Below are positions 15,232 through 33,042 of a stretch of 64,000 nucleotides of DNA, piece after piece. Both the position numbers and the translations under genes were made by a program. This DNA is from an uncultured delta proteobacterium (lineage in GTDB: Bacteria > Desulfobacterota > Binatia > Binatales > Binataceae): the NCBI GenBank assembly GCA_963808235.1, contig CAWEEQ010000004.1, positions 2,112,001 to 2,176,000 of the forward strand, read 5' to 3'. The notes below the pieces were generated by a model. It worked only from the letters and a program-made list of their open reading frames with translations. It did not search any database and had not been told where the DNA came from. Each line of letters starts with the position of its first letter. Position 1 is the first letter of the stretch.

Positions 15232-16351
15232 ATCCGTCGAACCGTAGAACAGCATACTTTGCGATGAGTCGCGCTGGTCGCAGGAAGTAGTACAAAAAAT
15301 ATAACGCGGGGGGAAGTTGCAAGGCTTTGTAATCGGCCCAGGAAGGTGCGAAGTGGCCGAGCAGGTAGCGCATACGATGTGGCGCTGACTCGAAAAGCCG
15401 CAAGCAGAAAGGGATTAACTCGGACTCCGGAGTCCGAATAGGCGCGCCTGCCAGCACCCGGTTTCTCACCTGCCGAACAAGTTCATCTACCGCGGTATCG
15501 GCAGGCAGCGTCAACGGCAGCGCGACCCCGAATAGATCCTCCGACAGCTTCAACCCAAGCAAAAGCTCGCGCATCGTGCCGGCGCGAGTCGACGCGGCTA
15601 TCACCTCGGGCCAACGCAAATTCGGAAAGGCGATCGCACATGATGCGACGTCGCAGATCCAGCCGAGGCGTTCGAAGGCATGCTTGGACCCGTGCGCGCA
15701 CAGCAACAGCAGTAGATGTTCCGGACACAGGAGTGGGATCGTGCGGCCGCAGAACGCAGTCGACACGAGCGATCGCCACACTACTTCGTGATCGAAAGGA
15801 CTCGCAAAATAGCTGGGCATGATCCGCCAATGCAGGTCCACGAAGTGGGAATCATCGACCAGCGAGATTTCCGCTTCTCTGCCGCGAAGAAAAGCAGAAT
15901 CGCACGGCCAGTGCAGAGGGCTTGCGACCCGGTAGCCTCGGGCGGTCAAAACGTCGCGGACTCGCAAGACATCGCGCGGATGAACCAGCCAATCGAGATC
16001 TGCGGAAGAGCGCATCGACAGATCGCCATAAAGTTGCTGACTCAGCGCGGGACCTTTCAACGGAACGAAATCGATCTCGTGTTCCTTAAACGATTCGGCC
16101 AATCTGCAGAGCTCTGCACTGAGTGCCAGGTTCCACCGGGTATTCTGTTGGAACGCCAGGCGAAGATTTTCCGCGGCGTGCGGCGGTATCGGGACCGATC
16201 CAAGCGCCCGGTAAAGCATCGGCGTAACGGCATGGCCTGACGAAAGGCGCATCAATTCGGCCCAGTCGATCCCGCCCGGGTCCGGTGGCGGATCTTCAGG
16301 ATGAAAAAACCGGCGCAATGCCGCGACCAGAAATTCGCACTCCCGGCTCAC
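15215..16351 (-). CDS. Nucleotidyltransferase family protein (NTP_transf_5-like), lasso cluster tailoring enzyme
   Basis: LKGPAL..Y....R.SADLDWLV, VDLHW and LCAHG.KH motifs; GTG start overlaps the ABC stop codon. Confidence 0.88.
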   Translation of the reverse strand: MSRECEFLVAALRRFFHPEDPPPDPGGIDWAELMRLSSGHAVTPMLYRALGSVPIPPHAAENLRLAFQQNTRWNLALSAELCRLAESFKEHEIDFVPLKGPALSQQLYGDLSMRSSADLDWLVHPRDVLRVRDVLTARGYRVASPLHWPCDSAFLRGREAEISLVDDSHFVDLHWRIMPSYFASPFDHEVVWRSLVSTAFCGRTIPLLCPEHLLLLLCAHGSKHAFERLGWICDVASCAIAFPNLRWPEVIAASTRAGTMRELLLGLKLSEDLFGVALPLTLPADTAVDELVRQVRNRVLAGAPIRTPESELIPFCLRLFESAPHRMRYLLGHFAPSWADYKALQLPPALYFLYYFLRPARLIAKYAVLRFDGSSRSN

Positions 16352-18159
16352 TGGAGGTTTTGGGCCGACCACCACATCGCGTAGCGTCCTCCTCGCGCGA
16401 TCAACTCCTTGTGCGAACCCGATTCGAGCACGCGCCCCTCTTCCATCACGTGAATCTCGTCGGCAAGCATCGCGGTGGTGAACCGATGCGTAATCACCAG
16501 GGCGGTGCGTCCCACTGCAAGATCGCGAAAGCGCCGCAACCAGTCAGCCTCGGCCCACGGATCCATTGCGCTGGTCGGCTCGTCCAGAATCAGGATTGGA
16601 GCCTGCCGCACAAATGCCCGCGCAAGCGCCAGCCGCTGCCACTCGCCCACGCTCAACTCGACGCCCTTGTCGAACCAGTGACCGAGCAGGTTTTCATAGC
16701 CGGCGGGAAGGCGGCGGATGAAAGTCTCGGCGCCGGCAGCCTCCGCGGCGGCGCAAATCAGCCCGTCGTCTCCCATCTTGGAAAGATCGCCCAGGCCGAT
16801 GTTCTCGCGGACCGAGGCGTTGTAGTGGACCGGCTGCTGGAACAACACGGTGACCTGCTGACGAAGCTCGTCGACTGCGAAGTTCCGCAAATCGGTCCCG
16901 TCGATTGTGATCGAGCCGGTCTCGGGATCGTAGAATCGGCACAGCAACTTGACCAGGGTACTCTTGCCCGCTCCGTTGGGACCAACGATCGCTACCACCT
17001 GGCCCTTGGGCACAAAGAGCTCAAAGTCGTTGAGCGCCAGACGTTGTCTGTCTGGGTAGCGAAAACAGATGTTTTGAAAACGAATACCCTCTTGTAGCTG
17101 GCGCGGAACCGGAACCGGCGAAACTGGTGAGATGACTCGCGGCACGAGCTCCAGGAATTCGAACAGGTTGCCGAGGAAGAGCGTGTTTTGATACAGCTCG
17201 CCGACGTTTTGCAAAAGCTCCCGCGCAAGACGCAAGCCTTGCTGAAACGCCTGATACAAAAGCGCCAGATCGCCGAGCGAGAGCTGGCCGCGCAGCGTCC
17301 TGAAAACCATCCAGACGCATGCTGCCGCGGTCACCGCCAGCGTGGACGCGCCCGCCAGCAGCTCCGCCAACCCCTGCGAGCGAGCCAGGTTGATGCGCTT
17401 CTCGCGCAGGAACTTACGCAGCTCGCGATACGCGCCCTCAAAGTAATCTCCCAGCGCAAAGAGGCGGACTTCGGAAGCGTGTTCTCCCGACGTGAGAATC
17501 CAATCGTAATACCAGATTCGGCGTACCACTGGGGTCGTCGTCATGCGAAGCTGGTGCTGCACGACGGCGTAGCGAAGCACCACGGCGAGCGCCGGGATCG
17601 TGCTCAACAACAGCGCCACCGGAAGCCAGATACCGAAACCCGCCAGCACCGCGAGCATCGCGGCAAGTGTGACGCCATTCTGGACCACGGTGCCAAGCTT
17701 TTCGACCAACACCATCGGCCGGCTGCCGGCTTCATCGCGCGCGCGATGGAGATGGTCGTAAAAATCGGGCGATTCGTAAAACGCCAGATCGGCGGCAATC
17801 GACTTGCGGTGAATGAGTCCCGAGATGTGGTCCTGCACCAGCTCGGCCTCGGCAGTGCGGGCCCAGTTGATCACGCCACCCAGCAACTCGGAGAGCAGCA
17901 GCACCATCGCCATCAAGAGCGCAGGCCAGAGCATCGGCCGCCAGTTGCCTCCGGAGCGGACCCCGGCGACAATTCCATTGACCAGGGGCCGGGTCAGATA
18001 AACCGTCGCGACCGGAAGAAATCCTTGAACGAGAAGCAGGGCGGTCCAGATGATGGTCCAGCCGGGCGCGGCTCGCCACACGAGGAGGATCGCGCGAGAG
18101 AGATCAGTCAGCAGAAGCGCCGCGCGACGAAAGCTGATGACAGCAGAGTATTCTGACAA
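16348..18159 (-). CDS. ABC transporter, fused permease/ATPase (peptide exporter, lasso D-like)
   Basis: TM domain, GPNGAGKST, LSVGEWQR, ILDEPTSAMD; no C39 peptidase domain. Confidence 0.93.
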   Translation of the reverse strand: MSEYSAVISFRRAALLLTDLSRAILLVWRAAPGWTIIWTALLLVQGFLPVATVYLTRPLVNGIVAGVRSGGNWRPMLWPALLMAMVLLLSELLGGVINWARTAEAELVQDHISGLIHRKSIAADLAFYESPDFYDHLHRARDEAGSRPMVLVEKLGTVVQNGVTLAAMLAVLAGFGIWLPVALLLSTIPALAVVLRYAVVQHQLRMTTTPVVRRIWYYDWILTSGEHASEVRLFALGDYFEGAYRELRKFLREKRINLARSQGLAELLAGASTLAVTAAACVWMVFRTLRGQLSLGDLALLYQAFQQGLRLARELLQNVGELYQNTLFLGNLFEFLELVPRVISPVSPVPVPRQLQEGIRFQNICFRYPDRQRLALNDFELFVPKGQVVAIVGPNGAGKSTLVKLLCRFYDPETGSITIDGTDLRNFAVDELRQQVTVLFQQPVHYNASVRENIGLGDLSKMGDDGLICAAAEAAGAETFIRRLPAGYENLLGHWFDKGVELSVGEWQRLALARAFVRQAPILILDEPTSAMDPWAEADWLRRFRDLAVGRTALVITHRFTTAMLADEIHVMEEGRVLESGSHKELIARGGRYAMWWSAQNLQ

Positions 18160-18203: not shown

Positions 18204-19763
18204 GTGGTCAATCTGGAAGCCTCTGAGATTCCACCAGCTGGATTTTCGGCGCCTCGGTCGCGATACGCCGATTGGACCAAATGGAATCCGTTGCCTTGCG
18301 CCCTCGCGGTGCAGGCTGCGCTCCTGTTTTACCGCCTCGATCTGCTCGAACCGTGGGGCGACGAATGGTTCACTCTCACGATAGTTCCACAGCCGTTGAA
18401 CCAAATCCGCGCTGTCGTCGAACGAGTCGCCCATCCGCCGCTCTATTTCTTCCTGCTGCATTTCTGGATTCAACTTCCGTGGCCCGCAAGTCCGCTCACA
18501 AAGATGCGTGCGATGTCGGTCCTGTGGACCTTGCTAGCCACCGTAATTTTAGACCGGCTGTGGCTGATCGAATTGGAGCCGAGGGTGCGGCGAATGTTCC
18601 TTTCGCTATGGGTACTATCGCCTTGCCTGCTGCTCTACGCGCGGATGGCGAGGTCCTACAGCATGCAGTTGGCGCTGGCACTGCTCACGATCTACGCCGC
18701 GTCGAAATGGCTGGCTCGGCCGCAAAGTTTACGATGGCTGCTGGCGTATAGCTGCTCTTTGGTCGCGCTTCTATACACGCACTATTTGCCGGGCTTGGCG
18801 ATTATGGCATCAGCATGGATGTTATTACTTGCAAAGCCGGAGTTGTCGCCGAAGATCCGCATGATGATCGCCGCTGCGCCGATTCTGGCGATCGCGCTCT
18901 TGTACCTATCGGGGCTAACGTTTCCCTTTCTGGCGCTTGGTGCGTGGAGAGCTTCCACCACGTATCGTGTAGGAAACCCGTTCGTCGATCAGCTCGTCCG
19001 GTTCGCCTATTGGTTCGTGTCGTTCTGCTTCGGCGAGACGATTTCCGCGCTCAGCATCGTACTTGGCGCATTACTGACGCCCGCGATTGCGTTCGCGTTG
19101 TATCGCGGTGTGCGGTCGCGACCGGAATGGATGAGCCTCCTTGCCGTGGCTTCCCTGGTCGGTTACATCGGAGTGAGTCGATGGACCGGGTTCCCGTTCA
19201 CACCCGCCCGGGTTCTGTTCGCATTGCCTTTCTTTCTGATCCTGCTGGTGAAAGGAATTGATGCGGGCGCGCGCGGCTCCATCGTATTCGCGGGTCTTTT
19301 GGTCGTATACATTTCCGGCGACTATAGCTACTTCGCAAAGACCGGCTACTTGAACAAGGCGTATTGCGTGCCCTACCAAACGATGGCCGACGTTATCGTC
19401 CGCGACTCACCAGTCAGCGGCGCCGTGCTCCTTGTCGATGGATACAGCTCCGTCCCTGCCCCATTGCTGATTCGGTTGGGAAAAGGGATCAGAGTGATCT
19501 TCCTTGACGACGAACAATCGGCCGAGCCCGAAGTGGAGACGGTCCGGCATCAGACGGGCATCATATGGTTCTGGCGCCACACCAACGATACTTCGCCGGA
19601 CAAATTTGTCAGCCGCCTGGAAACGGATTTGGCTCAGGGCAGGACTGTGAAGGAATACGACTATCTCCCCTACTCGATGCCCGAGCGTTGGATACTGCGC
19701 TTCCTGCGTGGTCCTGGACAGCCCAATTACTTTTACCAGCTATCAGAGCTGAAGCTGGACTAA
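18204..19763 (+). CDS. GT-C fold membrane glycosyltransferase (GT39/PMT-like)
   Basis: WGDE in the first loop, HPPLYF, ARMARSYS, LYTHY; multiple TM helices. Confidence 0.8.
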   Translation: MVNLEASEIPPAGFSAPRSRYADWTKWNPLPCALAVQAALLFYRLDLLEPWGDEWFTLTIVPQPLNQIRAVVERVAHPPLYFFLLHFWIQLPWPASPLTKMRAMSVLWTLLATVILDRLWLIELEPRVRRMFLSLWVLSPCLLLYARMARSYSMQLALALLTIYAASKWLARPQSLRWLLAYSCSLVALLYTHYLPGLAIMASAWMLLLAKPELSPKIRMMIAAAPILAIALLYLSGLTFPFLALGAWRASTTYRVGNPFVDQLVRFAYWFVSFCFGETISALSIVLGALLTPAIAFALYRGVRSRPEWMSLLAVASLVGYIGVSRWTGFPFTPARVLFALPFFLILLVKGIDAGARGSIVFAGLLVVYISGDYSYFAKTGYLNKAYCVPYQTMADVIVRDSPVSGAVLLVDGYSSVPAPLLIRLGKGIRVIFLDDEQSAEPEVETVRHQTGIIWFWRHTNDTSPDKFVSRLETDLAQGRTVKEYDYLPYSMPERWILRFLRGPGQPNYFYQLSELKLD

Positions 19764-19769
19764 ACAGGA

Positions 19770-21500
19770 TTGACCTTGTCCCTATCTGACCGCCCTCTTC
19801 TGAAGCACCTACTGCCCGTGAGCGCGTGCGCCACGGCCTTGCTCGCGCTGGGCCTGACGCCGTATGTTGTCACTTGGCTCTCAGGATACGGCTTTTTATG
19901 TCCTACCCAGGGCGACATGCCGTACTACCTGCAGTTAGCCGCGCAGCCTTACTACAATCACTCTCTCTACCTTAGCGATCCTATGATCCAGGGTGGCCCT
20001 ACGTTCTATCCCTGGCTTCAATACATACCGCTGGTCTGCTTGACCCGATTGCTAGGCTTACCGATCTTTGCGATTCAGGTTCTGTGGACAATAGCGGCCG
20101 CGCTCGGAACGAGTCTTACACTCTACTTGTTGCTGTGGCTGGTCTGCCGAAACAGATGGCTTGCGGCAGCTATCACGATTTGCGCCTGGGCCGACATCGA
20201 CTTGGGTATGAACAGGATCGCCCACCGGCCCTTGTTCATACACCAGATCTACCTGGTCGCTTCCGACTTGATCGCGCACCTGCGGGGGCATCGCCTGGTG
20301 GACAGGCCATGGTTTCCCTGGCAATGGCGACTTACCAATCCGGCGTTGGACTTCCCGTTCCTGTTTCTTCAGTTGATCGCGACTTCCATCGCTCGCGAGC
20401 ATCCGAACCGGCGCAACCTCGTTCTTTCCGGCTTAGTCCTCGCGCTGACGTTCTATATCTATTTCTACCTGTGGACGATGATAGCCGTGGGGCTCGGCCT
20501 GGCGATCCTGGTCGATCGGCCCGGCCGCCGGACTTACGTCTGGACGTTGGCATTGGGATTCGCGCTCGGATGGCCGCAGATCGCTCATGATTACCTGGTC
20601 AGAAGTGCATCGTCGGCCGAGGGGCTGAGATATTTCGGGCTAACTACCGACCGCTTGACTACTCTGTCTAAATCTTCTCCATATTTTCATCCTTACCTGG
20701 TTATAGGTGAGCTGGTTATTCTCGGTGTCTGGATTACCCGTCGAAAGGTCCCCTCTCTCGTTCTGACGTGGTGCATTACTTGCGCCGGCGTGGGCCTCTC
20801 ATTGGTTAACTTTGTGACAAGTGTCTATCTGCACAACTACCACTGGTCATGGCTGGTCGCTCCGCTCATACACATTCTGATGGTAGCTGTCGCGCTCGAC
20901 CTGATTATGCTTTGGAAACCGAGGCTGCAGATACCTGTTTGGGTGGGCGCACTATTTGTCTGCGCATTTCTGGCCAGCGGAATCTATCTCACAGAATCCA
21001 CCCTCACGGTCGTCGACTACGACGAGACCACATCACTTTACTCTGAATATGTTCGCCAAAGACTTTCGCCCGGAGTAACGCCTCTTAAGCCTGGCGCGGT
21101 GATTGCGGGCGAATGGAACGTCGTCGATCTCGCCGCGATCGCGGAGCGACAGAGGCCGCTGCGCGGGCGATTTCTGGATAACAACGTGCTCCTTGACGAC
21201 AAGGAGCGGCGAGACCGGTTCGTCCTCGATCACTATCTATCTGGAATCGACACCCACGACGACTTCGCAGTTCGATTGAAGGAGTACTTCTTTATTCCCC
21301 ACCCTCAACTGCCAGCCTATCTGCACACCTTCGACGAAGTATCTCGCGATCCGGACCGCTTCATCGATGATCTTAAGGTACGCTACCTCGTGCTCCCAGC
21401 AACTCAGCCTATCCCGAAGTCCCTGAGCCGCAGGTGGAATCTCATCCAGCCGGGTCCCTACTTCCGGATTTGGGAATGGACTGACAGCGCTCCGAAATAA
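19770..21500 (+). CDS. Polytopic membrane protein, probable GT-C-like
   Basis: GDMPYY acidic first loop; many TM helices; C-terminal periplasmic region (LKVRYLV). Confidence 0.6.
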   Translation: MTLSLSDRPLLKHLLPVSACATALLALGLTPYVVTWLSGYGFLCPTQGDMPYYLQLAAQPYYNHSLYLSDPMIQGGPTFYPWLQYIPLVCLTRLLGLPIFAIQVLWTIAAALGTSLTLYLLLWLVCRNRWLAAAITICAWADIDLGMNRIAHRPLFIHQIYLVASDLIAHLRGHRLVDRPWFPWQWRLTNPALDFPFLFLQLIATSIAREHPNRRNLVLSGLVLALTFYIYFYLWTMIAVGLGLAILVDRPGRRTYVWTLALGFALGWPQIAHDYLVRSASSAEGLRYFGLTTDRLTTLSKSSPYFHPYLVIGELVILGVWITRRKVPSLVLTWCITCAGVGLSLVNFVTSVYLHNYHWSWLVAPLIHILMVAVALDLIMLWKPRLQIPVWVGALFVCAFLASGIYLTESTLTVVDYDETTSLYSEYVRQRLSPGVTPLKPGAVIAGEWNVVDLAAIAERQRPLRGRFLDNNVLLDDKERRDRFVLDHYLSGIDTHDDFAVRLKEYFFIPHPQLPAYLHTFDEVSRDPDRFIDDLKVRYLVLPATQPIPKSLSRRWNLIQPGPYFRIWEWTDSAPK

Positions 21501-21525
21501 ATCTGTTCCCGGCCGATCGTGGAAA

Positions 21526-22666
21526 TCAGTTGCTATATCGCTCGGACAGATTCGCCGCCCTGGTCAGCGCGGCGTTCCAATTCTCGAAGCGTTCCGGATA
21601 TTGCGCGAGAAGCGCCTTTGCGATCTCATCGAGCGTAAGCTTCTGCAGCATGAGATCGAGCACCAGGCTGTCGATCCGCGAGTCTTCGTTGGGCTCCGGA
21701 ACAAAGCTATGTGCGCGTTTGCGCAGGCGGCCGGGCGAAAGCATTGCGCCATCGAAGGTCGATTGCCGAAACCGGGCCTTCACTCGCTCGCAACTCGTCA
21801 CCCGCGTTTCCCACGACCATTGGTAGTCCGACCGGACGAAGGCGGCGCGGAGCTGAACCTCGACCTGGTCGCCCGCCATCAGTTCGACGGCTTCAGGCCA
21901 TGGAAAGAACGAGTTGCTTGTAAACGTGCCGCTCGCCGGAGGCGGGCGAATTGGAATACCCCATCCCCGGGGCGGTTTCGCAATCAAACCAGGTGCACAG
22001 ACCGTGAGCCGTGGCGGCTCGATCGATCACCCACCGCATCTCGCCGTCAACGTTGATGCCCGCGAGGTTCTTGTAGTCCAGGGCCACCCATCGTTGCGGT
22101 GCCGCGATCAAGTCTTCCGCGCTAAGCCGAAATCCGAAATTGTTATTCACTGCTTTGAGACGCGCGCGGTCGAAATCGAATTGATACTCGTTGCCCCACG
22201 CACCGATGAACTTGTCGTAAAGCTCGCGGCAAGAGACAGGCGCGGCCCATATCGTGTCGCGTGCCGGGATGATCCAGCCGTCGGGCTTCAGAAATCTGTC
22301 GCGTGCGTCGAGAATCGAAACGATACTCTTGCCGAAAAGCGGACTGCCGCCGCGAATGTCCGCGACGATACCGTCGACCTTCTCTGGAAGATCGATATCG
22401 GTCGTCATCGCCTGAATGAATTCGATGCGGTCCGAAAACCCGTTGTCTGCCGCGATCTGCTCGGCGAGCTTGATCACGTCATCAGGTTCGACCGCGTAAA
22501 CTTTGCGAGCGCCGGCACGACACGCAAGAAACGCCATGATTCCAGGTCCGGCGCCGATATCCAAAACGACCGCGCCTGGCCGGACGTTAGCCCTCAGCGC
22601 GCGGTCATAAGATGAGGTACGCCCTTTGTCGGCGACCATTTCGCCGTAGGCTACGAGATCATACAT
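21526..22666 (-). CDS. PRMT-like SAM-dependent methyltransferase (~379 aa; +1 frameshift near 21910)
   Basis: EMVAD..RT..Y, VLDIGAGPG, KVYAVE, LPEKVD, ARDRFLKPDG; ORFs 21893-22666 and 21526-21987 join at RHVYKQL/FFPWP. Confidence 0.85.
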
Positions 22667-22684
22667 CCGGGCGCTTGAACCGGC

Positions 22685-22856
22685 TCAAGTATTGTCGGAA
22701 GTGTGGGTCCCGTCGCCAGTATCCTGCATAGTGTTTCTGTGCATCATTTTGGTGATGGACCCTAGATCGCCGTAGACTTGTACCTGCGGTTTGCCATACG
22801 GCTTCTTTCCTTCAGGGCTCACTGCTCGAGTCGTCCTTCTGATCTTCCAAAACCAT
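22685..22856 (-). CDS. Lasso peptide precursor A2 (leader ...KKPYGKPQVQVYGDLGSITK, core MMHRNTMQDTGDGTHTSDNT)
   Basis: Hand-translated; YxxP..G....T(-2) lasso leader motif. ATG 22856 needs a 1-nt correction, but an in-frame GTG at 22822 gives an intact 45-aa ORF. Not in the ORF track. Confidence 0.9.
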
Positions 22857-22876
22857 TGTTGCTCCCTCCCGACTAT

Positions 22877-22978
22877 TCAGTTTCGCGATGTTAGGTAACC
22901 ATAATAAAGTTCGCCCCCAGCCCCTCTTTCATCATCTATCTCGGCGACCATTTCGCCGTAGTTTACGAGATCATACAT
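22877..22978 (-). pseudogene. 33-aa stub starting like the methyltransferase (MYDLVNYGEMVAE vs MYDLVAYGEMVAD)
   Basis: Direct similarity to the first 13 codons of the gene starting at 22666; part of the tandem duplication. Confidence 0.6.
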
Positions 22979-22998
22979 CCTGATCGCTTTAGACCTTT

Positions 22999-23173
22999 TC
23001 AGGTGTTGTCCGAAGTATGCGTCCCGTCGCCAGTATCCTGCATAGTGTTTCTGTGCATCATTTTGGTGATGGACCCTGAGATCTCCATAGATTTGTAACT
23101 GCGGTTTGCTATACGGCTTCTTTTCTTTGGGTCCGACCGCCCCATCAACATCCTTCCGACTCTCCAAAACCAT
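22999..23173 (-). CDS. Lasso peptide precursor A1 (57 aa after removing 1 nt near 23078; same core as A2)
   Basis: MVLESRKDVDGAVGPKEKKPYSKPQLQIYGDL-GSITK-MMHRNTMQDTGDGTHTSDNT*; GATCTCAGGGTCC here vs GATCTAGGGTCC in A2 shows the extra base. Confidence 0.88.
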
Positions 23174-25008
23174 TCCTCAATCCCTCCTGACCATTCAATT
23201 TCATGACGTTAGAACACCATAACCAATGATTAAGAACAACCGGCCGCAGGTTCAGCCAGAACTCCCGCGCGTCGGTGGGCATCGTGCCTGGCACCTTCCG
23301 CGGATCCACGTACTTGAGAAGTTCTCCGGTCGGAACCAGCGGCGGCATCCCGGCGCGCCGAACGGCTTGAAATAGCGGAGATCTCAGCCAGCGGCGCCTT
23401 GTCCCTGCGAACCACTTCGTCCGGCAATATATTGCGCATCGCCCGCCTGAGCAAATACTTCCGCCGACACCATGGCAGAGCAGGCACCGAAAGCATATAG
23501 CGGAGCAGTCTCAGATCCACATACGGATGCCAAAACTCCACCGGCGCTTCCGTGAAACCGGGATCCATCGATTCGAACAACCTCGACCACGACGCGCTGG
23601 CGAATGACCCAAACCCAACGGGTCGGACCGGATGAAGCGAATTTGTGGGAGATTGCACCGTCTCCCATCGAGTGCGCGCGTGAATCCTCGATGCGAACTC
23701 ATCGTCAAGCCAGGGTGGAAATCCCGGTTGAGGCACTTCACCGCCGTTGCGCGTGACGTAAGATGCAATCGCCGACGTGGGAAGAACCCGCCGATGTGCG
23801 ATCGCATGCTGGAAAACATCTCGTATCAGTCTGCTCCAGAGGTGCTGTTGTGCCAGGTAACGGAGATACGGCTTCCATTCGTACATCAGCGCGTTGTCCG
23901 AGCCCTCTCCATAAAAGAACACGCGTCCATGTTCGGCCAGTCCGCGATATTCCTCGAGTTTGAACGCGCGCTTGACGGAATAGACTGCCGGTTCAGGAGT
24001 CCGAAAGGGACGGCTGTTCCACTCCCAATCTATTTGCTTGTCGTCGCACGATCGGTAGTGAATCGGAATACCGAGGTGCTGGGCGACCAACCCCGCATAG
24101 TAACGCTCCTCGTCAGGAATCAGATGATCGAAGACGTTGGTGAAGGCCTCCACCGCCGGTCGACGCTCCGAGAACTTGCACGCGGCCGCCGCGAGCGAGG
24201 TCGAGTCCAGTCCGCCCGACATGAACACACCAACCCACGGGGTGCGGGTTCGATCCCGGACTGCAAGCGTCAGTAATTCCGTGAAGCGATCCACGTAATC
24301 CGAGCTGCGCTTGTAGAACACCGGCTCATCGACCGGCATCGACCAGTAACTGCGCGCGACGCAATTGTCTTTTGAGATGGCGAGTGAATGAGCAGGCGCT
24401 AACCGCTGGATATCGGAAAAAATGGTCGTGGCTTTTTCCTGGTTCGTGCCGAAAAGCAAAAAATCGGCAACCGCCTGCTCGTTCAGCTTGCTGGAAACAT
24501 CCGGATGCCGCCGTACGCAGTTCAGAGTATTGCTGAAGACGAACGTTTTACCGGATCGAAAATAGTAGAAAGGTCTGACCCCCAGGTGATCGCGAGCGCA
24601 AAACACCCGTCGAATATGTCCGTCCCAGATCGCGAAGGCGAAATCGCCGAGCAAATGCTCTACGCACTCCTCTTTTAAGGCGTGGTATGCGTGCAGGATG
24701 AGTTCCGCATCAGGCGCCGCGGACACTACCTCCTGACCCTTTGATTTTAGCTTTTCAACCAGGTTCTCGCGGTCATCGATGCGCGCGTCAGCCGTGATCC
24801 AGACTTGGCCGTCCAGACTGAACGGCTGATGCTCCCGCTCGGACTCCCAGGTGGTCCGCAGCATCGTATGACCGAAGCCGACATTCCCCTCGATCCACAT
24901 GCTCTGCGCATCAGGACCCCGGAAGGCCTGATGATCGGTCATCTCCTTGAGCAATAGACGGTCGACCGGTGCGCCGTCCAAATTGACTATGCCGACGATT
25001 CCACTCAT
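23145..25008 (-). CDS. Lasso peptide cyclase (asparagine synthetase-like, C protein); +1 frameshift near the C-terminus
   Basis: Begins MSGIVG, lacking the AsnB catalytic Cys; ARDHLGVRP, SGGLDS PP-loop, FYGEGSD, HPYVD, KYLLRRAM..ILPDEVVRRDK; adjacent to the precursors. Confidence 0.9.
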
Positions 25009-26858
25009 TGCGAATTACGCGACTCAGCGGAAAGAGCCCGCGAGGAACCCTTCACCTTTTCCGGTTTGTTGGCTGGCAGCGCCCCGCTTACGACCTGCTG
25101 ATAGAAATTCTCCAATGCCACGACACTTCGCTTGTCCGAATAAAGTCCCTGCCAGCCGGCGACCAGACGTTGAACGACGCGCTCCCGCCATTCCCGATCG
25201 AGCCCAAGATTGACGGCGATCTCAACGTAGTCGGATTTGTCGCGCGCGATAGTCTCGGTCACTCCGAGCTGGGTCAGGATGGCATACGAGTGCCGGCCGC
25301 GCATGAACCTTCCCGGCAATGTCACCACGGGCAACTTGCATGCGATCGCCTCGAAGGTGGAATTGCAGCCGGACCATTCGATGTTATCCAGAAAAATGTC
25401 GCAGAGAGAATTGAGGTTCCAGTAAGTGATCTCGTCAACGGTTGGTACGAATACCACGCGGTCGGCAATCGGCACTCGGGCCGCGGAAAACGCTTTGTCG
25501 AGTCTTCGCTGGAAATCGTTTTTGAGCGCCTCGTTCCACGCAATGAAAACAAATTGCGCGTCCGGTACTCGCTTTGCGATCGCCGGGAACACGTCATCGT
25601 GTTGCGGCAGATACTTGATAGTCGACTGGCATGACAAGTAGGCGATAGCGTCGTCCCGAATCCCAAAATCCGCTCGCGTTTTGTAAAACAAAGCTCTGGG
25701 AATCACCGGCTTCCGGTAACAGATGCCGATACCGGGCAGAGAAACCAACTTTTCAGTATAGAAGCTCTGCGCGCCCTCAGGCTCCATCAGATCACTCGAC
25801 AAAAAGTAGTCGATCGTAGGCAGTCCCGAGGTCATGGGATGGCCCCAGGTGGTGCATTGGATCGGAGCCAGGCGCAGCGCTCCCAGTTGGGTCATTCGCG
25901 GATCCATCCCGATGTCCAGGAAGACCAGGACATGTAACTGATCCGAGAGGATCGCGCGGCAGGTCTCTTCCAGATCGCCCGCCAGGTGTCGGAAGCGGAA
26001 ACTTGCGCGCCGCGCATCCTCGGTCCGGCCGTCTGCCTCACTTCCGAGGTAATAGGAAAAAATCTGGAATCTGTCTCGACTGTGTTCCTCGAGCCATCCC
26101 AGGTGATCCTTGGCGACGCTATGATTGCGCAAATTGGCCGAGACGTAACCGATGCGCAGCTTGCCGTCATCCGGCGGCATTCGAAGCCGCTGCACCCAAT
26201 CCGGATAGTTCGCCGCCATGATGCGATGCGCGACGTCGCCGTACATCGCCTGGAGTGTTCGGTCATCGTGCCCTTGGTACGCGAGTTGAAAATTAACGTG
26301 ACGTTTGAGTCCCGCCAGGCAACTCTCCCTTTCCTCCGCAGTGTCGAGGCGCAGTCCATCCGCGATTTCGCGTAGACCTTCGGTGAACCGGCAGCGGTAC
26401 CGCTCAACTTCATCCGAATCCGAGTACAACATCGGCAGGAGCAGTCCCTCCTGGAGCTTGAATAAGAAATCGGAAGGAAACTTCGCGCGCGCAGCCCGAA
26501 CTATTTCAAGGGCGTCCGCGGTGCGATTGCTGTCTTCCAGGAGCCGGATGCATCGCCGATAAAGTTTCACCGGCGCCGCGCACTGCTTGATCCCCGTTCG
26601 AAGCGTGTCGATCGCGGCTTCGTACCCGCCAAGCGCCTCCTGACATCGCGCCGCCTCCATGTAGGCTTCCGGATCCCGATCGCGAACTCGCAACTCTGCG
26701 CAAGCCTTCTCCAACGCCGCCAGGTGCGCTTTGTGCTCTTCGACTTTGAACGATTCGCACTGTTGCCTGAAGATGTCTTTCACAGAATTCAATTGCAAAA
26801 AACTCTTCTCATGCAGTGCTGGAAATCTTTTCGTCGCTCGCGCGACCGCCATCGGCAA
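25005..26858 (-). CDS. TPR + GT41 glycosyltransferase (O-GlcNAc transferase/SPINDLY-like)
   Basis: N-terminal TPR-like helices; LRIGYVS..LRNHSV, RLAPIQCTTWGHPMTSGLPTIDYF, DIFLD..WSG.NST.EA...LPVVTLPG..MRGR. Confidence 0.9.
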   Translation of the reverse strand: MPMAVARATKRFPALHEKSFLQLNSVKDIFRQQCESFKVEEHKAHLAALEKACAELRVRDRDPEAYMEAARCQEALGGYEAAIDTLRTGIKQCAAPVKLYRRCIRLLEDSNRTADALEIVRAARAKFPSDFLFKLQEGLLLPMLYSDSDEVERYRCRFTEGLREIADGLRLDTAEERESCLAGLKRHVNFQLAYQGHDDRTLQAMYGDVAHRIMAANYPDWVQRLRMPPDDGKLRIGYVSANLRNHSVAKDHLGWLEEHSRDRFQIFSYYLGSEADGRTEDARRASFRFRHLAGDLEETCRAILSDQLHVLVFLDIGMDPRMTQLGALRLAPIQCTTWGHPMTSGLPTIDYFLSSDLMEPEGAQSFYTEKLVSLPGIGICYRKPVIPRALFYKTRADFGIRDDAIAYLSCQSTIKYLPQHDDVFPAIAKRVPDAQFVFIAWNEALKNDFQRRLDKAFSAARVPIADRVVFVPTVDEITYWNLNSLCDIFLDNIEWSGCNSTFEAIACKLPVVTLPGRFMRGRHSYAILTQLGVTETIARDKSDYVEIAVNLGLDREWRERVVQRLVAGWQGLYSDKRSVVALENFYQQVVSGALPANKPEKVKGSSRALSAESRNSQ

Positions 26859-27790
26859 GGTCGGCGAGGATCCGGGCGCGAACTTCCGGAAGCAGCGCGA
26901 GGTCTCTTGGATACGAAATTCGTTTCACTGGCACTTGAGAGGCCAGCTGCCGCGATTTCGAAAATAGTTGCTGCAGACGTTCGCGGATCAGTCATCACGC
27001 TATTAAAAGTGTGGCGAATCAGTTCGACTAGCGCCTCGCGCTGAGAAAGCGTGGCGATCTGGATGCGCTGCTTGCGAAAGACCTCGCGCGGACCGCTGAG
27101 CACATAAACGGTGTGCAACGGCACCGGACTGGCCTGGTGGTGATGCTCTCCGAGCGGCAGTACCAGCTTCTCCGACCAATCGTTCATGCGCACGCCCTCG
27201 CCGCTCAGACCCAGGCAGCGGCGCGCCACCCACGGGAACACCTTGATTCGAGGTGGACCCGGCTGTGCCTCAAAACCGCCCGACGACTTTTGCGATACCA
27301 GCAGCAGATCGTCGGTGAGCAGCCGATGCCCATCGCTTAGAAATGTCGCCGCAAGCGAGGACTTCCCGAATCCACTCTCGCCAACGAATGCCAGCGCGTC
27401 CCCATCCAACACAACCGTGCTCGAATGAATCGGCTCAAAGCCCTGCTTCACCAGCGCAAACGACAGCGCGCGCCCCAAAAGGTAGACCTGCAACGATTCA
27501 CGAGACTCCGCACCGAGCCACCCGAACCAGATCCGGCGTCCGTCGCCATCCACCACGAACTCACAAAGGCCATCCCAGCGCAGGTAGACCTGATCATTGT
27601 CGAGGATAGCGTACTCGTACTGACGGTACGCGGCGGACTTCAGGAGCGCATCGCGACTCTTCTCACGAAAGAAGCTATCCGATTCGCTGAGCAGGTCGAC
27701 GTCCGGTTCCCCGATCGGGGAACCTTCCGCGAAGGAAAGCTCGACGTCGCTTCGCAGACGAATTCCGTAGATTTCATAGCGGTGCGTCAT
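26809..27790 (-). CDS. HPr kinase-like peptide kinase; +1 frameshift near 26980
   Basis: IHSS.V, P-loop GESGFGKSS, LLTDD; corrected C-terminus RLQQLFSKSRQLASQVPVKRISYPRDLALLPEV. Confidence 0.85.
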
Positions 27791-28074
27791 CAGGTGATCT
27801 CGACCAGCCCCTGCTCCGCCAGCTGTTCCACCAGGTCACGGATATCGGCCTCGAGTTGCGCCGCCTCGACATCGTATTCAGCCTGCAAAATGTCATGAAT
27901 CTGCCCGAGAGTCATCGGCTCCTGGATCAGCTGCCAAACCCGCGCGCCCACCGGATCGAGGCCGTAGTAAACGCTGTTCTTGAGATTCAGAATGGCCGCC
28001 TCGCCCTCCAGATCGCACGAAACCTGATCTTTTGACGCGATAACACGTGACTCGATCCCAAGTTTTACGGCCAC
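27790..28074 (-). CDS. PqqD-family RiPP recognition element (lasso B1/E), copy 1
   Basis: DLEGEAAILNL...YYGLDPVGARVWQLI...EYDV...LVEQLAEQGLV. Confidence 0.92.
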   Translation of the reverse strand: MAVKLGIESRVIASKDQVSCDLEGEAAILNLKNSVYYGLDPVGARVWQLIQEPMTLGQIHDILQAEYDVEAAQLEADIRDLVEQLAEQGLVEIT

Positions 28075-28188: not shown

Positions 28189-29373
28189 TTACGTAGCGAT
28201 CTTCAGCAGCCCTTCCTGGATTAGGCGCCGAACCAGGACGACCTTGGACTGCTCGGTGAGCATATCGGGCAGGTCATCGACCCGGAACCGCTCGTGTTTC
28301 GCAACGAATTCCAACGCTTCGGCTATACTTGGAGGACCGCTCACGACGCGCGTACCGAACTCGATACTCGCATTCGAATTCGTTCGGGTTACCCGGATGC
28401 TCCAGCCGAGGCGTCGGACCACCTCGGTGTGAGCCGCTATCGAACGTGCTCGCTCGATCGCGTTGAAATGAGGCTCCGGCGACGTCCGAAATTCGCGGCT
28501 GCGAGCGCCCGCGCATCGCGTCATCGCCTCCATCGCAACCTCGCGTCCCTGTACTGCCTTAAGAAGCGACGCGAACTCGCGCCCAATCTCGTCGGCTCGC
28601 GATTCGTCGCCCGGCGTAAACGACGGAACCGCATGGCGGAAAAGCTCGTTCCGCTCCGCGACGACGCGCAGACCCGCTTCCAGCAGATCGAGCCATCGAA
28701 GCGGGAAAATTCCGATCGTAAGATGCATCGACGGAACTTCGGTTCTCACCGCCTCATGGATGAATCCTCGCGGCAGATAAACAATTTGCCCCGGCTCCGT
28801 TGTTACTTCGAGGACCGGCGTGCCTAGCTCATGCTCCCCGCGTTTCACCACGGTTTCCTGCGGCTCCAGCGGCAACAGGTACTGCGGAGCGTAAACCCGC
28901 CATGACTTCCGACCCTCGAGTTGCAGGATGATCACGTCGTGCGAGTCGGCGTGCGCCGAAAATCCCTTCGCTTCCGACGGCGTGCAGTAAAGATTCACCG
29001 TGACCTTGTGCCCGATATCGAGCGCGACACCGCTCGCCAGCCGCGCCACCGGAGTGCTCCGCCGATGCAACTTGTGCACGCCGATACTCCAGCCCTTGGC
29101 GTAGGCCCGATAGATCGCCGACATGTCGGGGAGCCCGTCCGGCCCTCGCTCGACGGAGTACGACTCGACCCCGTAAGCATCGGACCGCACCATGTAGTCC
29201 TTCGAGCCTGACTCCTGCGCCGTCGTATGATCGAGGATCGCATCGAGGTCGTCGAACGTAGGCATGTCGCGGCACCAATCGGGCATCGGCCTCGCCACAT
29301 AGAGCGGCCGCTTCTCCCAGTACTCGGACCAGAACGTCGCGAGAGAAACCGGATCGATTAGCTGCTGCAACAT
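28189..29373 (-). CDS. JmjC/cupin 2-oxoglutarate-Fe(II) oxygenase (NO66/YcfD-like)
   Basis: FWSEYWEKRP, NLYCTP....GFSAHAD (HxD), QLEGRKSW, YLPRGFIH (distal His); C-terminal winged-helix-like LVRRLIQEGLL. Confidence 0.9.
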   Translation of the reverse strand: MLQQLIDPVSLATFWSEYWEKRPLYVARPMPDWCRDMPTFDDLDAILDHTTAQESGSKDYMVRSDAYGVESYSVERGPDGLPDMSAIYRAYAKGWSIGVHKLHRRSTPVARLASGVALDIGHKVTVNLYCTPSEAKGFSAHADSHDVIILQLEGRKSWRVYAPQYLLPLEPQETVVKRGEHELGTPVLEVTTEPGQIVYLPRGFIHEAVRTEVPSMHLTIGIFPLRWLDLLEAGLRVVAERNELFRHAVPSFTPGDESRADEIGREFASLLKAVQGREVAMEAMTRCAGARSREFRTSPEPHFNAIERARSIAAHTEVVRRLGWSIRVTRTNSNASIEFGTRVVSGPPSIAEALEFVAKHERFRVDDLPDMLTEQSKVVLVRRLIQEGLLKIAT

Positions 29374-29441: not shown

Positions 29442-29834
29442 TCACTTCCCCGCCTTCACGTATGCCTCGAGCGGCGGCGTCTTGGCGACGTGTCTAAGAT
29501 CGCGCGCGTTGGACAGTCCTTCGGAAAGCAAGTCCTCATCGCTGATCTCGACCCTGCCGTCCGCGCGCTTCGTGGATACTGACGCGGGCGGCAAAACCAG
29601 GTGCACCGAGTCCGCCGACGAAAGATGAACTTCGAGCGTCGTCTCAGCCGGTATGACGATTCCACACCGCCGCTCGAACACCTCTCTCGGATTCTTTTGC
29701 AGCTCGCGCGCAAAGTCCGGATTTCGCATCGCCTCGGTAAGCATCGCCACCACTCGCGAGCTCCGCATCGAGGCCGGAATCGACAGCACGCAAGCGAGCA
29801 CGAGCTGCACTTCGAGTTTGGGCTGCTCGCCCAT
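29442..29834 (-). CDS. NHLP (nitrile hydratase-like) leader peptide family protein, 130 aa
   Basis: AMRNPDFARELQKNPREVF...G..IP...LEVH....HLVLPP...EISDEDL; ATG overlaps the upstream TAA (TAATG). Confidence 0.72.
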   Translation of the reverse strand: MGEQPKLEVQLVLACVLSIPASMRSSRVVAMLTEAMRNPDFARELQKNPREVFERRCGIVIPAETTLEVHLSSADSVHLVLPPASVSTKRADGRVEISDEDLLSEGLSNARDLRHVAKTPPLEAYVKAGK

Positions 29835-32173
29835 TAGTCCTTGCTCATCGACGAGATATCGCGAAAAATCGTGACCGAATTGGCCGGAGCATAACATGCG
29901 ATTCCGCTCGCTGTACAGGCTCCTTTTGCGTGCGCGGGGCTGGCGACTGCCGAGGTTCGAATCGCGCCGAGAGCTTGCGGCGCAAACACCATTAGCAGCA
30001 GTTGCGGTGATGCCGCCCCGCCGTCCAGGTGGCCCACATATTGGGCAGGATAGGGAAAATAGATTTTCTCCGCGATGCTGCCATAGTTCGAAAGCACCGA
30101 GCGCAATCCCTGTGGCGTGCCGACGACGCCGATCGCTATAGCTCCATCATCCCACGGCCCCAGCCAGATTCCGGCGGTCGTGGCCGCAAACTTGGGCGCC
30201 GGGCCCAGCTCCTGTGCGAGCCGGTACCTGAGCGGGACAGTCCGCATGATCCACGATACAATCCGCTGGAACGAGGCTCTTCGGCGGATCGCGCTGATTG
30301 GCCAGTAGCCGTACACCTGGGATCGAGGTTCATCTCGCACCACTTCCGGCGGCAGCCCCATCGATGCGGCCTGCACCGGGCTGAGCTTGTCGAGCGGCTT
30401 CCCCGAAGCAAGGTAACTTTGCGCGGCCCCAAAGAGCATCCGGAAGCGGAGCAGGTTGTAGCGCGATTCCATCTCGTCCGCCCCCAGACTGCGATACGGA
30501 GCGAGACTTTCGCGGTCGATGCGGTAGAGAAAAACCCCGCCGACGTCGACTCGTTGCGCGCTTACCGTGGAGACCAGACGGCCATAGGCGGCATAGTCGC
30601 CCTCTTTGACGACGATCGCGCTGACATCGTGATCTGCAATGAACGCTTTGAACTGGTCCTCATAACCGGGGATATATGGTGCGTCCTTGTTCAGAGCGTC
30701 GACGATCGGCCACGCCTGGAACTCGTGCGGCACGATCCCGAGCAGCCCTTGCGGCATCCGGAAGTAGAACTTGCTGGACGACTGCCAGAGCATACAGTTG
30801 CCGCTCTCTCCGTAAGGCAGAATAAGCACGGTCTCGTCGCGCTTTAGATAGTTCGCGTAAATCCCGTCGCGAAAGAATTCCGGTAAATCCGCCTTGCCGA
30901 TCCACCGGCTGAACGGGATCGCGGGCATCAGCGAAACAACTACCGCGCCGGCCAGCAGCCACCGGAGTGGACTCGGCTTGCCGGCCGGTTCTGCTTCTGC
31001 CAGCCACAACGCCACGATCAATCCTCCCACAAGGAACGCGTACATCATGAACCGGGCCGGCAACGCATTGTTCAGGATCGGTACCGGCACCGCCCAGATC
31101 CATAGCCACGGCGCGACCCCGAAACCGCTCACATGCAGAACCGGCCCGATCGAGGCGATACAGATCAGAGCAAGCATCGCGGTCAGGTAACGGGCTAGAT
31201 CGCGTCGAGGCGATCGCCAGAGAAACAACGCACCGAGCACGGGCAGCAGGCCAAGGTAGCCGGCTGCCTCTTTGAGATCGTCGTTGCGAATCGTCACCGC
31301 GTTCAAGGAAGGGAGCCAGGCACCCATCGCACTGACCCCGGTGGGAAAGAAAAAATTCAGCAGATCGGTCGAGCAATGCGCCGGGTTGTAGATCGGAAGC
31401 CAGTCATATTGCCTGGCGAGGAACCTGACCAGGTATGGCGACAGAACCACGATCGCAACGCCGTAAGCGATCGTCAGCGAAACCGCCGCCCTCTTGAACT
31501 CGGCCATGTTGATCTCAGGAAAAAATCGCCGCGCCGCTACTATTGCCAGCGCGCCGAAGATTGTCGCCGTAGCAAAGATCTCCGGAGAAAGGAGGAACTG
31601 AAAAACCAGGCAAGCCGCGAACCACATTACAAAGGTGATGCGCCCCAGGCGCCCATGCCAATGCAGCAGCACGAGCCACGGCAGAATCGGAATGACGAAC
31701 ACCAGGACCAGGTCCAGATGCCCGGTGAGCTGCTCCTGCATATACGGAGAGAAGCCGAAGATGCCTCCGCCGATTAGCGCTGGCCAGAACGCGCCGGTGA
31801 CATAGCGGTAAAGGACGAATGCGGTGAACGAAGCGAGGATTGGAGCGAGCAAGGTGAGGACGTTGTAAGACGCAACCACGCCCACTATACGGGTCAGCGG
31901 CCAGGCGGCGAGACTCGCACCGGGAATCGTGGTTGCCCATGCCAGATTAAAGCCGCTGGGAGCCCACACCACACTGGTTTCAAGCGGGACTAGGCGATGG
32001 CTGATGGCGTGCGGATACCAGGCCAGGCCCCACATGTAGATTTGTGGCTCCCCCGTATAACCGCCGAAGCATGAAGTTGCAAAGCCCCGCGCTATCAACG
32101 GGGTTCCGAAAATGCTCACCGAGAGCGCGGCGAAGATCGCAAGCGCGCCGAGAGTAGTCAGGAGTTTCCGCAT
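29834..32173 (-). CDS. Polytopic membrane protein, YfhO/GT-C-like
   Basis: N-terminal TM bundle (WAP.GFNLAWATT, FGFSPY, GHL, GYLG, PARFM) and a periplasmic C-terminal region. Confidence 0.7.
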   Translation of the reverse strand: MRKLLTTLGALAIFAALSVSIFGTPLIARGFATSCFGGYTGEPQIYMWGLAWYPHAISHRLVPLETSVVWAPSGFNLAWATTIPGASLAAWPLTRIVGVVASYNVLTLLAPILASFTAFVLYRYVTGAFWPALIGGGIFGFSPYMQEQLTGHLDLVLVFVIPILPWLVLLHWHGRLGRITFVMWFAACLVFQFLLSPEIFATATIFGALAIVAARRFFPEINMAEFKRAAVSLTIAYGVAIVVLSPYLVRFLARQYDWLPIYNPAHCSTDLLNFFFPTGVSAMGAWLPSLNAVTIRNDDLKEAAGYLGLLPVLGALFLWRSPRRDLARYLTAMLALICIASIGPVLHVSGFGVAPWLWIWAVPVPILNNALPARFMMYAFLVGGLIVALWLAEAEPAGKPSPLRWLLAGAVVVSLMPAIPFSRWIGKADLPEFFRDGIYANYLKRDETVLILPYGESGNCMLWQSSSKFYFRMPQGLLGIVPHEFQAWPIVDALNKDAPYIPGYEDQFKAFIADHDVSAIVVKEGDYAAYGRLVSTVSAQRVDVGGVFLYRIDRESLAPYRSLGADEMESRYNLLRFRMLFGAAQSYLASGKPLDKLSPVQAASMGLPPEVVRDEPRSQVYGYWPISAIRRRASFQRIVSWIMRTVPLRYRLAQELGPAPKFAATTAGIWLGPWDDGAIAIGVVGTPQGLRSVLSNYGSIAEKIYFPYPAQYVGHLDGGAASPQLLLMVFAPQALGAIRTSAVASPAHAKGACTASGIACYAPANSVTIFRDISSMSKD

Positions 32174-32302: not shown

Positions 32303-32758
32303 TCACTGCGCGAGGGGATCCCGCGCAGTCAACGGCACAAACTGATCGAGTTGAAAATCCCCAATCACCACGCTGCCGCCACTCTCCAGCCATGCGTGCG
32401 CTTCAAGCCGCCCACCCGCCGGCTTCATGACCCCGATCTTCAGCTCGGCCGGATAACCGTAACGCTTGAGCACGATGCCCGTCGCGAGCGCTCTTACCAG
32501 ACAGTTGCCCGCCCCCGGCACGACCCGGCTGAGCGCCGCGACCGCCCACGCAATCCTGCGCGCCGTCGGTAGTGGCACAGGCGTTCCTGCCCGTGATGTG
32601 CGCCGCACCGGCCGGCTCATCGCGTCGGCAATCCGGTTCACACGCTCAAACGGCATCGTCCACATCGCGATGCGCATCGCAACGATCGGCGCGATCGTGT
32701 TCAGTACGAGCGTCCGATCCGATCGATTAAGAACTATGAACTTGCCAATCCGGCTCAT
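32303..32758 (-). CDS. Lasso leader peptidase (B2, transglutaminase-like)
   Basis: NCLVRALA catalytic Cys, LKIGV, AHAWLE catalytic His; ATG overlaps the RRE stop. Confidence 0.92.
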   Translation of the reverse strand: MSRIGKFIVLNRSDRTLVLNTIAPIVAMRIAMWTMPFERVNRIADAMSRPVRRTSRAGTPVPLPTARRIAWAVAALSRVVPGAGNCLVRALATGIVLKRYGYPAELKIGVMKPAGGRLEAHAWLESGGSVVIGDFQLDQFVPLTARDPLAQ

Positions 32759-33042
32759 CCCGTGACCTGGATAAGCCCACGTTCTTGAAGTGCGCCCAGC
32801 AACTCGATCAACTCCCCCGAGCATCGCTCCGTTTCAACGTCGTACTGCGCCAGGATCGCGTCGCGAATGTCAACCACTCGCCGCGGCTGCGCGATCAGGT
32901 TCCACACCGTCGCGCCGACCTGGTCAAGTCCGAAGTAGGTGCCAGTCTTCAATTCCAGGATCGCTGCTTCGCCGGCGAGATCGCAGGAAATCTGATCCTT
33001 CGATGCGACCACTACGGACTCTTGCGAAATTCGCCTTTTCAC
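32755..33042 (-). CDS. PqqD-family RiPP recognition element (lasso B1/E), copy 2
   Basis: DQISCDLAGEAAIL...YFGLDQVGATVWNLI; clear paralogue of 27790-28074. Confidence 0.92.
   Translation of the reverse strand: MKRRISQESVVVASKDQISCDLAGEAAILELKTGTYFGLDQVGATVWNLIAQPRRVVDIRDAILAQYDVETERCSGELIELLGALQERGLIQVTG

Follow-up and report, generated by a model that had tools for sequence, protein, structure and literature searches.

Class II lasso leaders carry the motif YxxPxLx3Gx5Tx, with Thr at position -2. Binding of the leader by an RRE is the textbook pairing, and bulky residues in the tail, the plug residues, hold the lasso thread. The leader motif is partly confirmed in the accessible part of PMC10368454, and the accessible part of PMC12214591 gives the rule that Asp or Glu at core position 7, 8 or 9 serves as the acceptor.

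The systems closest to the locus described here are lasso peptides phosphorylated by HPr-kinase homologues. According to the accessible sections of PMC8498205 and PMC9266682, these kinases phosphorylate the C-terminal Ser of linear precursors and, for pseudomycoidin, a nucleotidyltransferase adds hexoses to the phosphate. The paeninodin type, a putative peptide of Sphingobium yanoikuyae and pseudomycoidin, as presented in these sections, resemble our locus in having split B1 and B2 proteins, a cyclase, an ABC exporter, an HPr-kinase homologue and a nucleotidyltransferase; the likeness extends to a C-terminal hydroxyl amino acid and a YxxP...T(-2) leader. In contrast to these systems as described there, the peptides of our locus end in Thr rather than Ser and are predicted to have Met at position 1. 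The cluster adds a JmjC protein, a PRMT-like methyltransferase, a second RRE and a GT41 glycosyltransferase.

The BsfA/BsfK system of Bradymonas sediminis is also a Gram-negative, kinase-containing lasso cluster with a YxxPxL leader, and similar precursors are noted in Sphingomonadales and in Acidobacteriaceae, where they are predicted phosphorylated lasso precursors (PMC10368454, accessible part). As reported there, BsfA has Ile(-2) and a Ser3 that is phosphorylated by BsfK, whereas the precursors described here have Thr(-2) and no Ser in the predicted ring. The cyclases of fusilassin, cellulassin and halolassin use a large first residue (Trp1-Glu9 and Tyr1-Glu8) and provide examples of a 9-member ring; in contrast to our locus, these systems are actinobacterial, have an unrelated leader and core, use Glu as acceptor and, in the portion of the source available, come without a kinase or tailoring set (bioRxiv 10.1101/2020.11.25.399105). 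Precedents for an oxygenase and a methyltransferase are provided by canucin A, which carries beta-hydroxy-Asp introduced by the Fe/2-OG enzyme CanE, and by the C-terminal methyl esters of the lassomycin type. The CanE-type oxygenase and the methyltransferase are described as acting on linear lasso precursors with the aid of B1 (PMC9266682, accessible part). They belong to other enzyme families than those found here, which are a JmjC protein (PF08007) and a PRMT-like fold. In the open-access literature, supplements aside, we found neither a JmjC-tailored lasso peptide nor one with a C-terminal phospho-Thr.

Judged from its genes alone, the locus is a member of the lasso class that resembles the phosphorylated subgroup. 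It lies within a window of 64,000 nucleotides, the whole stretch of DNA that was analysed. An HPr-kinase homologue is present in the cluster (26809-27790, with matches below curated cut-offs), and its orthologues lie beside related precursors. Where the phosphorylated subgroup has a C-terminal Ser, both precursor copies of the window and all 13 aligned close relatives have Thr. The recognizable genes of the cluster are as follows; G008, G124 and G188 are genomes of the same genus.

15215 to 16375, minus strand: NTP_transf_5 nucleotidyltransferase (PF14907, 192 bits), syntenic in relatives.
16348 to 18159, minus strand: ABC exporter, permease/ATPase, syntenic in G008, G124 and G188.
21526 to 22666, minus strand: PRMT-like SAM methyltransferase (PrmA, Methyltransf_25, PRMT_C), 375-379 residues long in relatives.
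23145 to 25008, minus strand: lasso cyclase, asparagine-synthase-like (Pfam GATase_7 and Asn_synthase).
25005 to 26858, minus strand: TPR and GT41-family glycosyltransferase, between kinase and cyclase.
26809 (lower bound approximate) to 27790, minus strand: HPr-kinase-like kinase (Hpr_kinase_C, E 3.3e-6, below the Pfam cut-off).
27790 to 28074, minus strand: PqqD-family RRE (B1), next to the kinase (PF05402, 70 bits; NF033536, 68.7 bits against a cut-off of 80).
28189 to 29373, minus strand: JmjC (PF08007) Fe/2-oxoglutarate oxygenase-type protein, with 70% identity to the G124 and G188 genes.
32303 to 32824, minus strand: lasso leader peptidase B2, transglutaminase-core (PF13471, 90.9 bits; NF033537, 95.1 bits against a cut-off of 33).
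32755 to 33042, minus strand: second PqqD-family RRE, directly upstream of B2, with 79% identity to the G124 protein.

Read along the minus strand, the order is PqqD, B2, a 779-residue ORF, a 151-residue protein, JmjC, PqqD (B1), HPr-kinase homologue, TPR-GT41, cyclase, precursor copy A, precursor copy B and methyltransferase, with the ABC exporter and the NTP_transf_5 nucleotidyltransferase further along. This order puts the cyclase directly upstream of the precursors; B2, encoded on the same strand, is some 9 kb upstream. B2 is the only match of the genome to PF13471 above the cut-off. The truncated frame of the cyclase scores 376.6 bits against the NF033535 lasso cyclase family (cut-off 525), and HprK-related families match the kinase weakly, all of them below curated cut-offs. 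The G124 counterpart of the second RRE scores 69.1 bits on NF033536. In G124, as in the window, one of the two PqqD-type RREs is beside the kinase and the other beside B2. This layout suggests that the two RREs share out tailoring and leader removal between them.

The two precursors lie between the cyclase and the methyltransferase, and the analysis confirmed, on the minus strand, the paired leader motif and common core described by the sequence-only reading:

22999 to 23173, minus strand: precursor copy A, with a Shine-Dalgarno sequence and ATG at 23173, leader, 20-residue core and stop codon at 22999-23001.
22685 to 22856, minus strand: precursor copy B, with a Shine-Dalgarno sequence and ATG at 22856; the leader/core frame runs from 22822 to the stop codon at 22685-22687.
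22941 to 22978, minus strand: remnant of the methyltransferase start, its first ~38 bases (MYDLVNYGEMVA...), duplicated together with the unit and marking the tandem duplication.

Both copies encode a lasso-type leader, KKPYxKPQxQxYGDLGSITK, followed by the identical 20-residue core MMHRNTMQDTGDGTHTSDNT with Asp at position 9. Both are broken in the window as assembled. Translation of copy A from the ATG at 23173 gives MVLESRKDVDGAVGPKEKKPYSKPQLQIYGDL, passing through KKPYSKPQLQIYGDL before the frame is lost; the second half is found in the frame ending at 22999, which gives ...GSITKMMHRNTMQDTGDGTHTSDNT, that is GSITK and the core. The break is due to one extra base at 23078, between ...YGDL and GSITK, and once this base is skipped the leader of copy A fits YxxPxLx3Gx5Tx. 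Copy B is an open frame of 45 codons (22685-22822) with the product MSPEGKKPYGKPQVQVYGDLGSITKMMHRNTMQDTGDGTHTSDNT (GTG written as M), in which the leader KKPYGKPQVQVYGDLGSITK precedes the core and the segment PYGKPQVQVYGDLGSITK is an exact fit to YxxPxLx3Gx5Tx, Thr(-2) included. The ATG at 22856, 34 bases upstream of this open frame, follows a strong Shine-Dalgarno sequence, GGGAGGGAG. Translation from this ATG is one base out of register with the leader and core and ends after 14 codons, an additional base near 22831 lying between the two frames. When bases 22831 and 23078 were removed by script, open frames of 56 (B) and 57 (A) codons resulted, each from an ATG preceded by a Shine-Dalgarno sequence. 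The proposed identity of these genes as lasso precursors is supported by the fit of the leader motif, by Asp9, by the context of cyclase, B2 and two PqqD/RRE genes and by the keeping of the frame in relatives.

Translation of copy B from the GTG at 22822, giving 45 residues, was considered and is unneeded: there is no Shine-Dalgarno sequence at the GTG and a strong one at the ATG at 22856. A weak additional tblastn match to the leader at about 19838-19897 of the window (E 2.9) was taken as chance. A scan of 21300-23600 was uninformative: it detected 0 promoter-like sites, and its 5 terminator-like sites compare with an expectation of 2.1. Automatic annotation of the assembly would probably leave the cluster without a substrate; the two precursors are supplied here.

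The two units form a tandem duplication of about 316 bp. Pairwise alignment gave 82% identity over 275 aligned bases and displayed the extra base of copy A as GATCTCAGGG, against GATCTAGGG in copy B. Over the 78 bases that encode GSITK, the core and the stop codon, the copies differ at five sites, all within the core. As the sequence-only reading had listed, and as was recovered exactly, these are the third positions of codons 14 (ACG/ACC), 15 (CAT/CAC), 17 (TCG/TCC), 19 (AAC/AAT) and 20 (ACC/ACT), and every change is synonymous. When 3 transitions and 2 transversions were placed randomly in the 60-base core, all five were synonymous by chance with P = 0.0002-0.0003 (200,000 simulations). The conserved leader segment differs between A and B by three conservative replacements (S/G, L/V, I/V) and two more clean synonymous differences (Tyr, Gly). 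The N-terminal parts of the leaders have diverged, in line with the earlier reading, and the spacers after the stop codons have diverged through indels. Because the core differences are all synonymous, the leader changes conservative and the spacers altered by indels, the leader/core reading frame is, as far as sequence comparison can tell, under purifying selection, which bears out the claim of selection on this frame. The first 56 bases of the compared 78-base stretch are identical between the copies; this identity could also come from gene conversion.

Relatives of the precursors are intact. A search of 5.8 billion proteins returned eight matches (P0001-P0008), all of them uninterrupted and 56-66 residues long, with a core, [T/A][Q/V]HRNT[K/M]QD[S/G]GDG[T/S]HTSDNT, that is near-identical to that of the window. 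Their N-terminus reads MVLxDxKxAxxVSPEGKKPY, which copy B gives only with base 22831 removed. G008, G124 and G188 have intact 55-residue precursors at the same position. Thirteen aligned sequences keep Y, K, P, YGDL, Thr(-2) and the C-terminal Thr without exception, with a constant distance between YxxP and Thr(-2), and 12 of the 13 have Asp9. The core frame is therefore kept in homologous loci, on the evidence of the eight proteins and the three precursors of the genus, a point on which the earlier reading had staked itself.

The clusters of G124 and G188 are also intact, with a 604-residue cyclase, the 55-residue precursor and a 379-residue methyltransferase; the GT41 gene and the 779-residue ORF are missing from both, and no GT41 gene is found at the same position in either. 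In G008 (L017/L018, G008:C6:920001-946000), the intact 55-residue precursor, methyltransferase, ABC exporter and nucleotidyltransferase are kept. Within the 26 kb examined there, the N-terminus of the cyclase, the kinase, the RREs, JmjC and B2 are absent, so that this cluster is truncated with its precursor still open. Many metagenome loci have homologues of the methyltransferase and kinase and more distant homologues of JmjC beside precursors. Loci L076-L140 contain a large soil family of precursors with the leader ...KPQLQVYGDLxEITK, a core with Asp9 and mostly ...HPNKHFTS tails. Next to these precursors lie homologues of the kinase and of the same PRMT-like methyltransferase, together with a distant JmjC protein. 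We found no description of a tailoring set of PRMT-like methyltransferase, kinase and JmjC protein in the open-access literature searched. That the set is conserved beside related precursors on many contigs from soil suggests lasso tailoring steps for which this literature gives no description.

We regard it as probable that copies A and B are two genuine, tandem-duplicated lasso precursor genes of about 56-57 codons with the same core, and that their breaks are most likely insertion errors of the assembly. To assess the breaks, contigs, rather than raw reads, of four soil-metagenome runs from two studies were compared with window positions 21400-25200. Contigs from runs X1 and X2 are without the extra base at every suspected frameshift in this interval; their depths are low (2.7-4.9), and the evidence at 22831 and 23078 comes from a single contig each.

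21506, just beyond the stop of the methyltransferase frame (21526): base missing in a contig of run X2.
21910, in the methyltransferase, which the extra base splits: base missing in contigs of runs X1 and X2.
22831, in precursor copy B: base missing in a contig of run X1.
23078, in precursor copy A: base missing in a contig of run X1.
23379 (X1) or 23381 (X2), in the cyclase: base missing in contigs of both runs.

The earlier prediction of extra bases at about 23078 and 22825 was accurate, in that independent contigs lack them at 23078 and 22831. In addition, a loose end of an X2 contig has 18 letters before 22834 where the window has 19, and X1 is without three bases at 23142, equal to one in-frame codon. 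The cyclase switches frame near 23379-23387 relative to G124, and the sequence for its actual C-terminus (...LNLRPVVLNHWLWCS...) runs into the beginning of copy A. Outside the compared interval, the kinase switches frame near 26985 relative to the intact 325-residue gene of G124 and is probably broken by the same kind of extra base. Since the independent contigs are without the extra bases and the metagenome homologues are intact, the breaks in both precursor copies are most likely insertion errors of an indel-prone assembly. Run X1 may represent the source sample itself or a closely related, distinct strain, and real frameshifts specific to the strain of the window are accordingly conceivable.

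The main alternative is that the frameshifts are real and that the cluster is decaying in this strain, with both precursors, the cyclase, the methyltransferase and the kinase as pseudogenes while related strains are intact. We judge this unlikely. The six breaks within about 5.5 kb, that near 26985 included, are far denser than the genome average, as would fit local decay; G008, having lost the cluster upstream of the C-terminal part of the cyclase in the 26 kb examined, shows that decay occurs in the lineage; and the contigs without the extra bases carry some substitutions relative to the window and may represent other strains. However, every break checked in 21400-25200 consists of one base inserted in the window when it is compared with contigs of otherwise 98-100% identity, and the cores diverge purely synonymously. 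The breaks at 23078 and 23379/23381 also share their surrounding 8-mer, GAGATCTC, a hint of systematic error of technical origin; two local break sites share CGAGT. A methylation motif was not supported as a genome-wide cause, as GATC was near just 10 of 26 frame-switch junctions and counts of NAGATCTN were unremarkable.

The genome is also prone to indels overall. It comprises 4.59 Mb in 4 contigs, with 92.95% marker completeness. When 426 kb of G008 were compared with it, the 75,053 aligned residues contained 26 frame switches; in the opposite direction 24 were counted, of which codon-position GC assigned 13 to the window genome and 11 to G008. This corresponds to about one break per 17-23 kb of coding sequence in both genomes (13 in 225 kb for the window genome), counts that are rough and were made with no clean control genome. 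The sequence-only reading had described the precursors as hidden genes. Their frames are indeed broken in the window, but the cause is most likely assembly error rather than biology. Annotated pseudogenes in this genome therefore warrant suspicion, and its frame breaks need a read check before they are read biologically.

A second alternative concerns the processing register. The predicted cleavage after ITK and the predicted ring between Met1 and Asp9 are supported by the conservation of Thr(-2), Asp9 and the C-terminal Thr in relatives. The residues at core position 1 were tabulated in this register:

Closest proteins (n = 8): T 5, A 3.
Five genes of related genomes: K in G008; H in G124 and H in G188; T and H in the two genes of G016.
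Other genome loci of the class (n = 24, not counting the two loci of the unpublished genomes G363 and G233): S 8, A 7, G 5, H 2, K 2.
Regex matches in 65 metagenome loci (n = 56, including two apparent chance matches on the opposite strand of L118): A 18, S 16, T 13, G 4, H 3, N 2.

In the regex set, Asp9 is the sole acceptor in 46 of the 56; 36 of the matches end in Ser and 9 in Thr. Among the relatives compared, Met1 occurs only in the two window copies, with Thr or Ala in the closest relatives. The sequence-only reading had called Met at position 1 rare; this holds in that no relative has it, but position 1 is loose in the family anyway (T, A, K, H, S, G, N). No Met1 lasso peptide was found in the open-access literature, supplements aside, where the matches opened concerned Met13. 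If true, a Met1-Asp9 ring would widen the known range of ring-forming first residues.

The copies might instead be lasso precursors with another register, for example with cleavage two residues later and a 7-residue His-to-Asp ring, or they might yield a branched-cyclic, unthreaded product. Within the close family, variation is greatest at core positions 1 (T/A/M) and 2 (Q/V/M), with HRNT.QD fixed, and the tail has few bulky residues. Moreover, leaders with Ile or Val at -2 are reported for phosphorylated lasso peptides, those of Acidobacteriaceae included, so that register rules are not absolute (PMC10368454, accessible part). Against this, Thr is invariant two residues before the predicted cut at constant distance from YxxP, and Asp follows nine after the cut in all but one of the 13 aligned sequences. 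The same register also places Asp at position 9 in most of the metagenome matches, with mainly A, S, T or G at position 1. A different register or an unthreaded product is in our estimation very unlikely. With cleavage after ITK and the ring to Asp9, a stable threaded lasso through the 9-residue ring is nevertheless not assured, because His15 is the sole moderately bulky residue of the tail TGDGTHTSDNT.

It is similarly improbable that each genome has one precursor and that the tandem pair is an assembly artefact joining two strain alleles. In a contig of run X4, positions 23145 and 22812 are connected by 14 other letters, which by a hand-counted frame makes an in-frame single-copy precursor. 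In addition, metagenomes contain separate proteins with A-like and with B-like leader N-termini, and as no listed contig bridges the whole spacer between the copies, the duplication rests mainly on the assembly. Yet the copies are just 82% identical and are separated by a unique spacer with the methyltransferase-start remnant, the hallmark of a tandem duplication that is old. Run X1 contains both leader variants, X2 has depth in the spacer bins 22797-22923 and 22924-23050, and G016 likewise has two tandem precursors. Judging from the X4 single-copy haplotype, natural populations vary in copy number. The Met-Met codons are independently seen, since the X1 piece over 22587-22768 (record 4) has 0 differences from the window. 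Finally, programmed +1 ribosomal frameshifting past real extra bases, which would need the same shift direction in both copies with one base skipped, is rejected as next to inconceivable, because the two sites have no sequence in common, the homologues are read in uninterrupted frames and the additional bases are absent from independent contigs.

Taking the copies as two genuine precursors, we infer the cleavage site, ring, threading and all tailoring by analogy with described systems. A PqqD-type RRE would bind the YxxP leader, and the B2 peptidase would cleave after Lys(-1), with Thr at -2. The asparagine-synthase-like cyclase would then link the alpha-amine of Met1 to the side chain of Asp9, yielding a 9-residue ring and an 11-residue tail, and the ABC transporter would export the product. 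The probable phosphorylation target of the HPr-kinase homologue is the invariant C-terminal Thr, by analogy with the C-terminal Ser of paeninodin-type peptides. Further modifications are probably added by the nucleotidyltransferase, the JmjC oxygenase, the PRMT-like methyltransferase and the GT41 glycosyltransferase.

A more far-reaching proposal is that the locus is the first known example of an uncharacterised, multiply tailored branch of phosphorylated lasso peptides that is common in soil bacteria. In this branch, the cyclase would take almost any first residue (Met, Thr, Ala, Lys and His in the close clade), a C-terminal Thr would be phosphorylated in place of Ser, JmjC, PRMT-like and, in this genome, GT41 enzymes would decorate a tail nearly devoid of bulky residues, and these modifications, rather than side chains, would supply the steric lock. 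We put this forward tentatively and consider it rather doubtful as a whole. Thousands of such lasso clusters have already been predicted, and the understanding of the lasso class is unchanged by the Met1 ring or the tailoring set.

Several further genes of the region were noted. The GT41 gene has a weak match to HMW1C-like N-glucosyltransferase, and a homologue with 48% identity lies beside the methyltransferase in the related metagenome locus L103. The 779-residue ORF (29834-32173, minus strand), located between B2 and the NHLP-like gene, has no Pfam or NCBIfam match, and a search of the G379 cluster, as of those of G124 and G188, did not find it. The 151-residue protein (29442-29897, minus strand) matches NHLP-leader/nitrile-hydratase-alpha models below threshold (TIGR03793, 34.6 bits; cut-off 50.9) and is kept at 64% identity between B2 and JmjC in G124 and G188; it could serve as an accessory protein or as another precursor of RiPP type. 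Two ORFs of 519 and 576 residues (18204-19763 and 19770-21500, plus strand) have no family match. Both are syntenic in G124 and G188, where they lie between the methyltransferase and the ABC exporter on the opposite strand with 65-77% identity.
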